Below, piece after piece: positions 4,283-24,660 of a stretch of DNA of 64,000 bases. Under the pieces are notes generated by a model, which saw only the letters and a list, made by a program, of their open reading frames with translations, made no database searches and was not told the DNA's origin. The DNA lies in NCBI GenBank assembly GCA_964016885.1, contig OZ024743.1, forward strand, positions 157,852,001 to 157,916,000, given 5' to 3'. The stretch's first letter is position 1; every line of letters begins with the position of its first letter. The position numbers and the translations under genes were made by a program. This DNA comes from Eledone cirrhosa (taxonomy: Eukaryota).

Positions 4283-4479
4283 CACTGGAAGGTAATATCC
4301 GTAGTGGTAGAGTATTCAGTCCATGGGACGAGTTAGGTAGAAGTGGTTACACAACAGTTAGTTCACCATACCGGGAACAATTGTTTCATCTTGGCGGATC
4401 CTCGTAATTACGAGTTGAGGATCCGCCAAGGTGAAACAATTGTTCTCGGTATGGTGAACTAACTGTTGTGTAAACACTT
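4283..4479. mobile_element. Foldback insert in (TA)n: ~63 bp inverted arms (4341-4403 / 4417-4479) plus one-sided tail
   Basis: Arms are near-perfect reverse complements; TA runs on both sides. Confidence 0.85.
4411..4448 (+). ncRNA. Minimal type I HHR motif (C3U variant)
   Basis: CGAG-UUGAGGA-U-CC GCCAA GG-U-GAAAC-AAUU-GUU-CUCG; palindromic stem III ACAAUUGU. Confidence 0.75.
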
Positions 4480-4521
4480 ATATATATATATATATATATA
4501 TATATATATATATATATATAT

Positions 4522-4582
4522 AGGAAAAGAGTGAGGACCCCGACGGCTGAGCTCCGGCCGTTTCGACAGCTAAATCTGAACT
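4522..4582 (-). other. 3' half of an HHR element between TA runs
   Basis: Minus strand GAAAC-GGC cggagcuca GCC-GUC-GGGG, then ucuuuuccua and (TA)n. Confidence 0.6.
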
Positions 4583-4641
4583 ATATATATATATATATAA
4601 TACAAGGAATAATTGTTACTCGCTTATTACGTTTATTAGTT

Positions 4642-4726
4642 GGTGACGCGCGTTTCGCTACTGATCAGCTCAAGGTTCGATCTGTATGGATTTAACCCGA
4701 CACTGGAATCAAAAGCTCGTCGGACC
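4642..4726 (-). ncRNA. Type I HHR motif (U4C variant) inside foldback insert 4598-4775
   Basis: Minus strand GGU-CCGACGA-GCU...AGC-GAAAC-GCGC-GUC-ACC; flanks 4600-4640 and 4731-4772 are imperfect inverted repeats. Confidence 0.75.
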
Positions 4727-4786
4727 TCTTTAGTAGTAAACGTAATGAAGGAGTAACCATTCGTCCTTGTATTATTATATTACCCT

Positions 4787-5172
4787 GGGGCGGTGGATTG
4801 GCAGTATCGGTAGAGAGTCGGACACCATGCTTTGAAGTATAGTGTCACGTCCCTTTATGATCTGAGTTCAAATCCCGCCGAGGTTGCCTTTCATCCTTAC
4901 GGGGTCGATAAAATAAAGTACCAGTAATGTACTGGGTAATTGCTGGCCTTGTGCCTAAAATAGAAACAATTATTATATTACCCTTGCGGTGGATTGGCAG
5001 TATCGGTAGAGGGTCGGACGCCATGCTTTGCAGCACAATTACGTCACTTTACGGACTGAGTTCAAATCTCGCCGAGGTTAACTTTGCCTTTCATCCTTAC
5101 GGGGTCGATAAAATAAAGTACCAGTAATGCACTGGGTAATTGCTGGCCTTGTGCCAAAAGTAGAAACAATTA
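4787..5172 (+). mobile_element. Two head-to-tail full-length tRNA-SINE copies (4787-4972, 4986-5172)
   Basis: A-box-like tggcagtatcgg, B box gagttcaaatcc/ctc, shared core and tail. Confidence 0.9.
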
Positions 5173-5344
5173 TTATATTACACTCTGTCTAGCTCTACAC
5201 CTCGATACTGACGTGAACCTAAACATCGAGTGCTCACCCGGGTGAACCTACAGTAACTTCGCGTTACACTCCCTGGATATACGTGTGTGTGGTGTGTGTG
5301 TGTGTGTGTGTGTATATATATATATATATATATATATATATGTA

Positions 5345-6485
5345 CTCTTTTGCCTGTTCCAGCCATCCAGCTGAGACCATGCTGGGGCACCGCTCTTGTT
5401 GCTACACATTATGTATCCAGCATATGTTGGCTGGCCATTGGTGTAAAAGAGAGTTCGTTGCTGCTGCCCTTAGGTTACCTTCGTACCGTGCTGTAGACTC
5501 ATCCGGGATCCTGGATAGCAGAGTGTCAAGATACTTCTTGAAAATATCCACGTCCATACCATGCATATCTCTCAAATTTCTTGGCAGCATGTTGAAGAGT
5601 TGAGGGTCTTTGCACCCCAGGCTATTTCAACATCTACTCCTTATTCTAAATGTGTAAGACAGAACCTTTGGCACCACACAGTGACGTCCTGTTCGGGGGT
5701 TCGTCCAGCTCTCAATGCCAACGTTTGGTGCTAGTCCCTGTAGGATTTTCCAGATGTATATCACTGCGGATCTCTCCCTTCTTCGTTCCAAGAAGTAGAG
5801 TTTCAGCTTTTTTAGCCTCTCCCAGTAGCTCATCTCCTTCACCGTTACAGTCATCTTGGTGTAGCTTCGTTGGATTATCTCAAGCTCTGTGGTTAGTTTG
5901 ATACTATGGGGTTGCCACCGCTGGAATCAGTAGTCCAGTCGGCTTACGACAAATGTCCTCCATAGTATCAACGTGGTCTCTTGGTCTCTTGTCCGAAAAG
6001 TCCTCAAGATCCAGCCAACGAGTCTTCTGCACATTGTCGCCACTCTCATGATGTATGTCGAAACATATGCATCGTCACTCACGTCTATCCACAGGTCTCG
6101 TATCGATTTCGACACGGGGATTTCGAACCCTCCTGGTTGGTATTGTATGGCTTGAAATTTTCCAGCATTAAACTGCATGTTGTTGTCCTCAGCCTATTTG
6201 TATATGGCATCCAGATCTTGTTGTAAAAGGGAATCAGCGGGGTTTTTTATTGCCTGTGCTACCTTTGTGTCATCAGCATAGCTAGTGAGGAATATTGTAT
6301 GTACTACAGAGGGCATGTCTGAGAGAGCCACCAAAAACAGTAGTGGTCCCAAGAATGAACCCTGGGGCAGCCCACTTCTTATTGATGTTTCCTTTGAGAG
6401 GATCCCAGTGGCTGCAGCTGCCTGGCTTCTGTATTTGAAGAAATCATGCAGCTACTCACCTACCTACTTTTCCAGTTATGCATAA
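5345..6485 (-). mobile_element. CR1/L2-group LINE, 3' part of ORF2 (RT), degraded
   Basis: Minus frames give PQGSFLGPLLFL, YADDTK, MQFNAGK and YWERLKKLKLY.LERRRER. Confidence 0.85.
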
Positions 6486-22826: not shown

Positions 22827-23117
22827 ATATATATATATATATGTAAACGGAAAAAATGAAACGACAATTCATTTCCCACTCTTAGTACGGCTGTTACTTA
22901 AATATAAGTATGTATCCGTACATACATATATGTATACAGACGTACAGTAGTATGTATATAAATATATATATATACATACATGCACACATATATATATGTA
23001 CATATGGATTGACCGAACATTTATTATAATGCTCGGTGTGTTTGTAAACAAACATCCCGTATTAAGCCGTAGTGTCTAGCAACCATCGTTGCTCGTTTGT
23101 TCAACACTGACAAAGGA

Positions 23118-23160
23118 ACGCTGTACTAGTTTCAAGCTTATTAGCTATCGTCAGCAACGT
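23118..23160 (-). ncRNA. Minimal type I HHR, intact core
   Basis: ACGUUG-CUGACGA-U-AGCU AAUA AGCU-U-GAAAC-UA-GUA-CAGCGU. Confidence 0.88.
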
Positions 23161-23468
23161 ATACCTTCCTGCCAGATGATTGTCGATATATATATGTACA
23201 TATATATATATGTGTACATGTATGTATATATATATACATACTACTGTACGTCTGTATACATATATGTATGTACGTATACATACTTATATTTAAGTAACAG
23301 CCGTACTAAGAGTGGGAAATGAAATTTCGTTTCATTTTTTCCGTTTATCGTTTTCGGTGCACCCGACCGATTAACCCACTCGATATACAAATTGGGCTAC
23401 TCAGCCGTTAATATGCATAAGGAAAGTATATACTTTCAGACGTTCAATCATCTAGCAGGAAGGTATAG

Positions 23469-23507
23469 GTTGCTGACGATAGCCAATAAGCTTGAAACTA
23501 GTACAGC
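23469..23507 (+). ncRNA. Minimal type I HHR, intact core
   Basis: GUUG-CUGACGA-U-AGC CAAUAA GCU-U-GAAAC-UA-GUA-CAGC; palindromic stem III ACUAGU. Confidence 0.88.
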
Positions 23508-23761
23508 GTTCCTTTGTCAGTGTTGAACAAACGAGCAACGATGGTTGCTAGACACTACGGTTTAATACGGGATGTTTGTTTACAAACACACCGAGCATTA
23601 TAATAAATGTTCGGTGAATCCATACGTACATATATATATATGTGTGTGCATGTATGTATATATACATACATACTACTGTACGTCTGTATACATATATGTA
23701 TGTACGTATACATACTTATATATATATATATATATATATATATATATATATATATATATAT

Positions 23762-24209
23762 GCAAAAGTTTTATATAAAATTGTTGGGTTACAACAAGTA
23801 AATATTTTATAACTGATATAAAGCACTCGACAAGTTTTGGAGTAGATATACGATATTAAACAAATGGAAACTATATTTATAAAACCATATTTATTTCATT
23901 ATAAATATTTCGGGGATACCATATTAAAAATATGGCATGCCTTCTTCAGATAAAATACAATATATAAACAGTTCTATAAATAATTTTGACGTACCATAAA
24001 TATTGACCAACCGTTATGTAAGAAGCTGGTTTTCTTACATAACGGTTGGTCAATATTTATGGTACGTCAAAATTATTTATAGAATTGTTTATATATTGTA
24101 TTTTATCTGAAGAAGGCATGCCATATTTTTAATATGGTATCCCCGAAATATGTATAATGAAATAAATATGGTTTTATAAATATAGTTTCCATTTGTTTAA
24201 TATCGTATA
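23762..24209. mobile_element. Foldback insert in (TA)n: ~178 bp arms (23847-24024 / 24032-24209), 7 nt loop, one-sided tail
   Basis: About 2 mismatches between arms. Confidence 0.9.
24101..24160 (+). ncRNA. Type I HHR motif (mirror copy on minus at ~23896-23955)
   Basis: CUGAAGA(24107-24113), stem II AUGCCAUAUU/AAUAUGGUAU, GAAAUAU-GUA; stem I is weak and AU-rich. Confidence 0.7.
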
Positions 24210-24239
24210 TATATATATATATATATATATATATATATT

Positions 24240-24660
24240 TAGAGAGAGAATAAGAAATTAGAAAGTTTAGATGATAAAGTCCTTTATTGATAAGGGCGTG
24301 ATACATATTTCAAGGACGACATTGGCTACGCAATTCAGCGTAGAAGCTATTGTCATGATCTCATCAGAGAACGTTACATAATAAAGTTACAATCAAGGAG
24401 GTAATCCAAAATTGAAGTGAAAAGGGAACGAACAAACAGTGATGATGGGAACGGGCATTCGATTAATGAACACTGCTGTTTGTCCGTTTCCTTGTAACTT
24501 CAATTTTGGATTACTTCCAATTGTGTAGCTAATGTCGTCCTCGAAATATGTATAACGTCCCTATCAATAAAGGACTTTATCATCTGACCTTTCTATTTCC
24601 TTATTCTGTAACTACTCCGCCACTCAGTTCTTGAATTGAATTACAGCAGTGTTTTACAAT
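24240..24660. mobile_element. Diverged foldback HHR insert between TA runs; right arm internally deleted
   Basis: 24248-24335 inverts to 24519-24608 and 24397-24440 inverts to 24476-24518. Confidence 0.8.
24296..24375 (-). ncRNA. Type I HHR motif with long stem II
   Basis: ACGUUcu-CUGAUGA(24367-24361)-GA..AUGACA..CUACGC/GCGUAG..UGUCGU..UU-GAAAUAU-GUA-U(C/A)ACG. Confidence 0.75.

Follow-up and report, generated by a model that had tools for sequence, protein, structure and literature searches.

The stretch of Eledone cirrhosa DNA considered here (64,000 nucleotides (nt) of contig OZ024743.1, assembly GCA_964016885.1, positions 157,852,001 to 157,916,000 of the forward strand; hereafter, the window) is AT-rich and microsatellite-dense, and contains decayed pieces of LINE-type (long interspersed nuclear element) reverse transcriptase (RT) sequence together with many copies of one SINE (short interspersed nuclear element). 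It also contains ten foldbacks, i.e., pairs of inverted arms mostly bordered by (TA)n, which are very probably short, non-coding 3'-end (pseudo-LTR; LTR, long terminal repeat) insertions of several hammerhead-bearing families of Penelope-like elements (PLEs) in an already known layout. Nine of them had been listed in an earlier note on this DNA and are labelled A (4341-4479), B (4598-4775), C (8521-9162), D (9162-9377), E (9495-9595), F (20752-21082), G (22842-23720), H (23847-24209) and I (24248-24608). The tenth, E2 (56712-56919), was found in the same family as E and lay outside the original list. The foldbacks and two solo copies of family E are the following:

4284..4403, minus strand: left part of foldback A, with arm 4341-4403 and a 57-nt tail (4284-4340); 3' end at (TA)n 4180-4282.
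4404..4479, plus strand: right copy of foldback A, with a hammerhead at 4411-4448 (core variant U3.G8) and a short 3' end at (TA)n 4479-4522.
4600..4775, both strands: foldback B, tail-less, with arms 4600-4638 (minus) and 4734-4773 (plus) of 82% identity.
8473..8515, plus strand: 5'-truncated solo of family E, whose short 3' end coincides with that of the E left arm and runs into (TA)n 8513-8530.
8531..9152, both strands: foldback C, tail-less, with inverted arm 8531-8692 (minus) and direct copy 8693-9152 (plus).
9162..9477, both strands: foldback D, with inverted arm 9162-9221 (minus), direct copy 9222-9377 (plus) and a 100-nt tail (9378-9477).
9496..9690, both strands: foldback E, with left arm 9496-9548 (minus), right arm 9549-9595 (plus) and a 95-nt tail to 9690.
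20756..21083, both strands: foldback F, with inverted arm 20756-20866 (minus) and direct copy 20867-21083 (plus).
22843..23182, minus strand: inverted copy of foldback G, with a hammerhead at 23118-23160 and a 60-nt tail (22843-22902).
23183..23720, plus strand: direct part of foldback G, a partial tandem of a ~430-nt non-coding unit.
23762..24209, both strands: foldback H, with an 83-nt tail (23762-23846) and arms 23847-24024 (minus) and 24032-24209 (plus) separated by a 7-nt spacer.
24247..24658, both strands: foldback I, with outer arms 24247-24335 (minus) and 24519-24607 (plus) and a 48-nt right tail.
41780..41830, minus strand: diverged solo of family E that retains sequence 5' of the junction.
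56712..56919, both strands: foldback E2, second copy of family E, with the same long end and the same arm-specific 2-nt indel as E.

The foldbacks are real. Self-comparison of the window recovered 9/9 of the previously claimed ones as local inverted self-matches at the labelled coordinates; inverted matches of at least 40 nt within 1.2 kb numbered 16 after binning (some loci being counted repeatedly), compared with none in 15/15 local dinucleotide-block shuffles, which set the chance level. In 10/10 cases an inverted, 5'-truncated copy adjoins the 5' end. Arms span 39-280 nt and differ by 0-18% substitutions: 63 nt with three substitutions in A, 39 with seven in B, 162 with three in C, 60 with one in D, 111 with two in F, 280 with 13 in G, 178 with two in H and 89 with ten in I. 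The arms of E (45-47 nt) form the sole substitution-free pair and have the 2-nt indel, and those of E2 (54-56 nt) have one substitution and the identical indel. Spacers measure 13 nt in A, 95 in B, 298 in C, 95 in D, 6 in E, 100 in F, 262 in G, 7 in H, 183 in I and 15 in E2.

Individual anatomies are diverse. The left copy of A begins within the hammerhead core, and the junction of this foldback lies within a 14-nt palindrome. B is a weak case (39 nt, 82% identity, no tail, and a right end merging into a SINE dimer), with a partial hammerhead on its left (Rfam Hammerhead_1, 19.7 bits, E 0.52). The two hammerhead-like motifs of C (8552-8634, minus; 9049-9131, plus) carry the same core change, A6G; the hammerhead of D (9290-9327) reaches 29.1 bits with Hammerhead_1 (E 4.3e-4), under the gathering score of 34; and E has its junction inside helix II of a motif that is hammerhead-shaped but non-canonical in its core. 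The hammerhead of F (20911-21003) has a U3-A8 covariant core and a palindromic helix III, and about 157 nt of unique sequence (to 21241), a possible tail or else host DNA, precede the next (TA)n. Both arms of H contain a complete hammerhead (23892-23957 and 24099-24164). I has a second, inner arm pair (about 24397-24439 and 24476-24518), its right arm being without the 61-nt core-bearing segment 24336-24396. Finally, G is no simple hairpin; its direct part consists, in this order, of a distal part plus tail (23192-23347), a 97-nt body, a hammerhead (23469-23507) and a short 3' end. G is a miniature of the full PLE layout, i.e., a tailed inverted copy followed by a partial tandem of a ~430-nt unit.

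At the nine listed foldbacks, 16 of the 18 outer ends lie at most 2 nt from a run of at least five TA units, a count which is partly circular because for six tails, and on the left of I, the end was set at the run by the analyst. When ends set by arm alignment alone are taken, 9/11 adjoin such a run, compared with a background of about 2% of the window lying within 12 nt of a run edge. A clear one-sided tail is present in seven of the ten foldbacks (57 nt in A, 100 in D, 95 in E, 83 in E2, 60 in G, 83 in H and 48 in I; range about 48-100 nt), so that the 60-100 nt tail previously described on one arm holds for these seven, with a somewhat wider range, and fails for B and C, which have none; F is uncertain. 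The element-derived nature of the tail is shown for E/E2 and G only. At the short ends of eight tailed arms, the overlap with TA amounts to 1, 2, 3, 4, 6, 5, 5 and 0 nt (mean 3.25). The summed overlap of 26 nt compares with 9.7 nt under a random-phase null (P 0.006) and 17.5 nt under a best-phase null (P 0.09); without G, E2 and F, the respective P values are 0.08 and 0.38. This overlap is only suggestive, and it is equally compatible with TA-guided priming, a microhomology-mediated 5' junction and later slippage. Two clusters of insertions are linked through (TA)n: at 8473-9806, five insertions (the E solo, C, D, E and a SINE piece) are joined via short runs, and at 22825-24668, G, H and I are joined in like manner. 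Runs of (TA)n seem to be reused as landing sites.

Complete type I hammerheads in the element sense, nine in total, were found in six of the ten foldbacks (A, C, D, F, G and H), and 9/9 read outward, as the earlier note had claimed for the arms. In the remaining four (B, E/E2 and I) only truncated, partial or variant cores are present, which by eye also point outward. The search used a minimal-hammerhead descriptor built on PMC4209133 and relaxed twice, after that paper and after motif inspection. The initial, tightest descriptor gave two matches, one of them in a foldback; a stricter one gave six, five of them in foldbacks, vs 0.175 and 0 in 40 shuffles; and the looser one gave 11 matches window-wide, nine of them in the foldbacks, which cover about 6% of the window, vs shuffle expectations of 1.43 overall and 0.07 in foldbacks (30 shuffles). 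In Rfam at E up to 10, hammerhead matches were limited to D and B in 4100-9900, with none in 20600-24800; the top matches were sub-threshold microRNA (miRNA) families, generic hairpin matches under the gathering score. An unpaired T flanks helix II on each side in A, E and G, and U occupies the cleavage site in A and D. The core of family E (41780-41830 and 56768-56782, minus strand) reads CAGAAGA for CTGANGA, helices I-III being otherwise well paired, and would be either a natural core variant or a common inactivating change. The predicted hammerheads may be active as ribozymes.

Related motifs are also present outside the foldbacks. At 1099-1683 (plus strand) there is a partial tandem without inversion, in which a 104-nt direct repeat (1099-1202 and 1580-1683; period 481) encloses a hammerhead-like motif at 1411-1488; it has a TA terminus and a layout like the right half of G. 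Two pieces of about 57 nt (4523-4581, minus; 1684-1740, plus) contain just the 3' half of a hammerhead related to that of family C, each being flanked by TA runs, with both ends nearly alike. A dispersed family at 26349-26613 and 46634-46897 (74% identity) has a (TA)n end and a core-like CTGANGA slightly upstream, and is possibly a further PLE 3' end.

Both the hammerhead shape and the PLE-type architecture agree with the retroelement origin proposed in the earlier note, which made no mention that this layout was already described for PLEs. In PLEs of the endonuclease-containing (EN+) Hydra clade, an inverted 5'-truncated copy stands directly at the 5' end, a 30-40 bp tail is found at one end, and (TA)n is the preferred target (PMC8557442). 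The foldbacks resemble them in the inverted 5'-truncated copy, the one-sided tail, the (TA)n, the partial tandem (G) and a type I hammerhead of matching shape near the 3' end; among the features of Hydra hammerheads given in File S2 of that paper are an unpaired T on each side of helix II, a palindromic helix III and a frequent cleavage-site U. Its supplement, as excerpted, reports that nearly all Hydra families insert in (TA)n, and includes one octopus family and one consensus with an attached inverted 5'-truncated copy. In contrast to Hydra clade elements, the foldbacks lack open reading frames (ORFs), belong to several unrelated families and have tails of 48-100 nt rather than 30-40 bp. The Naiad and Chlamys clades have a like inverted structure; Chlamys prefers (CA)n or (C)n, and insertion in (TA)n is not diagnostic for the Hydra clade because Naiad also has it (PMC8557442). 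The families behind the foldbacks are probably Hydra-type or related. They are uncharacterised as far as this one supplement, in its excerpted form, shows, five 12-nt motifs (families A, C, E, F and G) being absent from it on the strand searched.

Other PLE-derived structures are similarly close. Penelope of Adineta vaga (Arkhipova et al., 2013; PMC3846280) is arranged as inverted pseudo-LTR (pLTR), direct pLTR, body and pLTR, and has junction palindromes; the foldbacks share the head-to-head pLTRs, the junction palindromes and the optional tail on one inverted pLTR, but the A. vaga copies have 8-10 bp target duplications and mostly ORFs, whereas any duplication here is masked by (TA)n. The minimal hammerheads of truncated PLEs (PMC4209133) occur in pairs on opposite strands, 100-700 bp apart, with a U3-A8 core variant. 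The foldbacks are alike in these dual motifs, in the palindromic helix III, in an additional nucleotide before helix II and in the U3-A8 core (F); C and E are unlike them, having an extended helix III and different core changes. Metazoan non-LTR retrozymes (PMC7229834; bioRxiv 10.64898/2026.07.22.740005) are also short non-coding hammerhead repeat units, comparable to the ~430-nt unit of G. Nevertheless, a retrozyme is defined by two or more tandem units in succession, every one of them containing a complete hammerhead, whereas in the partial tandems G (only ~1.2 units) and 1099-1683 the direct part contains a single hammerhead; the main text of PMC7229834 never uses the word "inverted".

Coding sequence of the relevant type is present in the window as a separate remnant:

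6622..7300, plus strand: remnant of a Hydra-type PLE ORF immediately following (TA)n 6602-6621; it is decayed and 5'-truncated, and corresponds to the C-terminal linker and endonuclease region.

This frameshifted remnant gave 387 protein matches at E up to 0.001, and long homologs align along it and group among PLE-type clusters (Atlas). The Hydra clade is recognised by RWK and DKT motifs, a CxCX5C linker and the absence of CCHH; the remnant has CxCX5C, inspection of the long homologs P0080 and P0143 by eye shows RW and DKT/DKS-type motifs, and the Pfam GIY-YIG domain was detected in 1/14 homologs scanned (of 150 among the matches listed). Its sequence indicates that Hydra-type elements were once active here, with no implied link to foldback formation; the self-comparison detected no sequence in common between the remnant and the foldbacks. 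Another decayed element lies between (TA)n runs from 22808 to ~21380 (minus strand), with a Cys-rich linker and a GIY-YIG-like motif by eye. Its 22170-22808 part may be Neptune-like PLE sequence, as judged by inspection only; Pfam gave nothing relevant on the 6683 ORF or on the 22282-22626 regions, and word-indexed protein searches gave no match for the 6683 ORF or the 22282-22626 read-through.

Family E is the only one with two foldback copies in the window, and E and E2 are also the only different foldbacks with sequence in common at their termini. In this family, the outer ends that had been expected to be fixed are so at the long end (identical in 2/2) and vary at the short end, which occupies three positions in four arms, that of E2 being about 14 nt longer than that of E. 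The inner junctions, expected to vary, are close and non-identical: both lie in one 15-nt helix II hairpin, 5-6 nt apart, with the right arm of E starting further in. Identical junctions had been named as the sign of a fixed unit; the comparison, feasible for this one family, gave an ambiguous outcome. A TT is present in both left arms and in both solos (8473 and 41780), and is missing from both right arms. The E and E2 tails differ at 6/95 nt, while the arm parts in common show no substitution in ~85 nt (Fisher P 0.03, rising to 0.12 with inclusion of the loop change). Family E cannot have arisen by de novo snap-back; either two distinct repeats were used consistently, or the hairpin was inherited.

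Anatomy, orientation, (TA)n flanks and non-nested arms are all seen directly in this analysis. Tail and inner extension lie on opposite arms (non-nested) in A, E, E2 and G, and possibly in I; C, D and F are nested or tail-less, and B and H do not bear on the question. A has its tail at the left and its complete ribozyme at the right; the left arm of G can be aligned to the right copy only when split into two pieces; and in E and E2 the loop is a continuation of the left arm, as judged from the 41780 solo, with the tail on the right. Because inner extension and tail are on opposite arms, neither arm was copied from the other in these 4/10 foldbacks and, hence, A, E, E2 and G at least must each have used a template twice, which favours priming from both target ends. 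Plain snap-back is ruled out at these four loci; a hairpin trimmed on one side is still compatible with them. The term "twin priming" of the earlier note is a loose one. In L1 twin priming and two-template insertions (PMC11702581; PMC10191854), both target ends are likewise extended by RT and joined in opposite orientation. Nevertheless, the second L1 primer anneals internally on the same RNA, beside the end of the first product (PMC11702581), and the inverted segment is adjacent, upstream and non-duplicating, with a 1-10 bp overlap or gap, whereas the foldback arms duplicate one 3' region over 40-280 nt and are without poly(A).

The best single explanation, which we consider to have an even chance of being correct, is two-ended priming with a trans-supplied PLE RT-endonuclease, the two cDNAs being joined 5'-to-5'. 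The enzyme would (i) cut both strands of an AT-rich or (TA)n target, and (ii) let both 3'-OH ends prime reverse transcription on one repeat region, available as two RNAs or as two repeats of a tandem RNA. A downstream internal start at one end would generate the tail, and an upstream start at the other the short end. Both cDNAs would end early, often at hammerhead helices, and would then be joined 5'-to-5'. That the insertions arose in this manner, and by which enzyme, we infer. With the anole PLE protein, a predicted dimer, both target strands are nicked and then extended, synthesis beginning without homology to the cleaved DNA at two sites within the RNA that delimit the tail (PMC11167929). 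This behaviour speaks for two-ended priming, and it removes the need for complementary primers. The self-complementarity of (TA)n, previously advanced as the cause, is not supported, given that like inversions occur at non-TA targets (PMC3846280; PMC8557442) and the anole PLE needs no homology; the symmetry argument is weak, being neither needed nor shown. No proposal of two-ended priming for PLE inversions was found in the literature searched, which did not cover older PLE reviews, and prior statements may exist. A more elaborate and rather doubtful version holds that PLE inversions arise when the two target ends are primed on different repeats of a single tandem RNA (a tail site and a TA-matching short site), in this genome yielding many ORF-less hairpin families, some of which may spread whole, and catching a hammerhead-free SINE. 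If true, two-repeat priming would account both for there being just one tail at each insertion and for the variant linked to arm side in family E, and, at about ten junctions per 64 kb, the genome would be a large, sequence-readable natural record of the PLE inversion mechanism.

The SINE in question forms a pair of a different kind:

45758..46146, both strands: head-to-head SINE pair in (TA)n, hammerhead-free, with an inverted 3' part of ~97 nt (45810-45906).

Next to the inverted part come 49 nt copied in inverse orientation from the left flank (45906-45954), and then a near-complete SINE (45958-46131). Because the pair includes an inverted copy of its own flank, fold-back synthesis occurs at these sites, and the pair implies both-end priming plus fold-back synthesis in one event. 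The window has 15 SINE-related matches; this pair, a single locus, accounts for two of them. Comparable inverted duplications of the upstream flank are found in L1 (PMC10191854; PMC11702581), where they are occasional (three cases, 0.3%, in PMC10191854).

Two other routes, which may coexist with two-ended priming, were ranked below it. A foldback might be inherited, an unlikely option: the source locus would already have the inverted-plus-direct arrangement, and read-through RNA would be reverse transcribed once from the tail through both arms. Microhomology would link the short end, a 5' truncation of the usual kind, to (TA)n, and the junction would be made rarely and then copied. A single tail per insertion follows directly, the TA overlap at short ends (mean 3.25 nt) is as a 5' junction predicts, and E and E2 share the long end, the arm-specific 2-nt indel and junctions in one 15-nt hairpin, with a ~14-nt short-end difference and tails more diverged than arms. 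Yet the junctions of E and E2 are non-identical (5-6 nt), requiring an extra palindrome-perfecting event; the 8473 solo has the left-arm allele and an identical short end with no partner arm; the arm-to-arm substitutions of G (4 vs 6) and I (4 vs 3) lack the A-to-G bias towards one strand that might be expected from an edited hairpin RNA, although this is a weak test; and the origin of the first junction is left unexplained. Somewhat less likely still is that an antisense transcript or first cDNA folds at a palindrome and is copied, its ends being resolved unequally at integration. Self-priming on an antisense template was proposed for like structures by Arkhipova et al. (2013), and it suits the junction palindrome or tiny loop of A (14-nt palindrome), E (6 nt) and H (7 nt), the 98-99% identity of the arms of C, D, F and H, the nesting of C, D and F, and the inverted flank copy of the SINE pair. 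However, the opposite placement of tail and inner extension in A, E, E2 and G demands added trimming, an identical arm-specific indel at two loci is impossible by this route, and the arms differ by 18% in B and 11% in I, though age could account for that.

Two explanations that dispense with PLEs fare far worse. Inverted arms, TA flanks, small size, the symmetry of B and C and the occurrence of E twice with similar structure might suggest TA-targeting miniature inverted-repeat transposable elements (MITEs) or other foldback DNA transposons, which is highly improbable. MITEs have exact terminal inverted repeats and fixed length, whereas clear one-sided tails occur in 7/10 foldbacks (F possibly being an eighth), hammerheads point outward, the short ends of family E vary, single-arm solos exist (8473 and 41780), G is a partial tandem, and termini are in common only between E and E2. 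As the earlier note had argued, the foldbacks are not MITEs; the MITE reading is largely refuted by the tails, hammerheads, solos and unshared termini. Least credible of all is an assembly or library artefact from chimeric inverted reads. Short palindromes beside microsatellites are difficult to assemble (PMC8557442), but arms differ at 10/10 loci (1-18% substitutions or an indel), are asymmetric and terminate where the element does, and in one family a further copy, 47 kb distant, has a junction of its own; the foldbacks are not an assembly artefact.

Several observations weigh against the PLE origin and two-ended priming proposed here. No foldback is physically joined to PLE coding sequence, the ORF search found none in the foldbacks, and the tails of 48-100 nt exceed the 30-40 bp reported for PLEs. 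Hammerhead descriptors were tuned once motifs had been seen, and Rfam at gathering score gave no hammerhead, and zero matches of any kind, in the whole window. The minimum-energy fold of several motifs departs from the hammerhead shape: among eight sequences folded without constraints, F clearly supports it, D, G and H do so in part, and A, C, I and the E solo do not. Regarding mechanism, the nested C, D and F fit single-cDNA snap-back equally well, one-sided trimming of a symmetric hairpin intermediate at integration is expected to yield non-nesting too, and the segment absent from I may have been lost after insertion. In family E, an inherited whole hairpin fits better than two fresh events from one RNA, because of the indel by arm side and the tail/arm divergence. 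Microhomology at the inner junction could be read in just three foldbacks, E and E2 (1-2 nt, by eye) and A (3 nt, ambiguous).

In any case, short two-armed foldbacks permit sequence-only tests (nesting, arm-specific variants and junction spread) that separate two-ended priming, self-priming and inheritance. How PLEs form tandem and inverted structures, and why they prefer microsatellites, is named as an open task in the excerpt of PMC8557442, and inversion is not addressed in the in vitro PLE work as excerpted from PMC11167929. A PLE specialist is unlikely to be surprised by the foldbacks, but the dataset is usable for the inversion mechanism question. Such hairpins are also easily mis-annotated as MITEs or as microRNA precursors, the top Rfam matches being sub-threshold miRNA families.

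As for the surroundings, a tandem SINE dimer (4771-5184, plus strand; period ~198 nt) stands directly after foldback B. The SINE shows A-box and B-box-like motifs by eye and always terminates near one AT-rich site; ARAGORN found no tRNA in it. Among other retroelements, a near-complete non-LTR retrotransposon occupies 28860-32430 (minus strand), with RT (PF00078, E 1.7e-24), zf-RVT and a (TACA)n-type end, and a 3' fragment at 33051-33507 is 98% identical to it. A decayed LINE RT fragment (PF00078, E 4.4e-7), presumably CR1/L2-like, lies at 5400-6450 (minus strand). A decayed RT-like element at 49300-51900 (minus strand) has 57% GC, atypical for the window, and no Pfam match in the two frames scanned. 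Finally, a short perfect GC-rich hairpin at 52704-52756, followed by CTAGT, bears what we take to be a resemblance to a Helitron-type 3' end.

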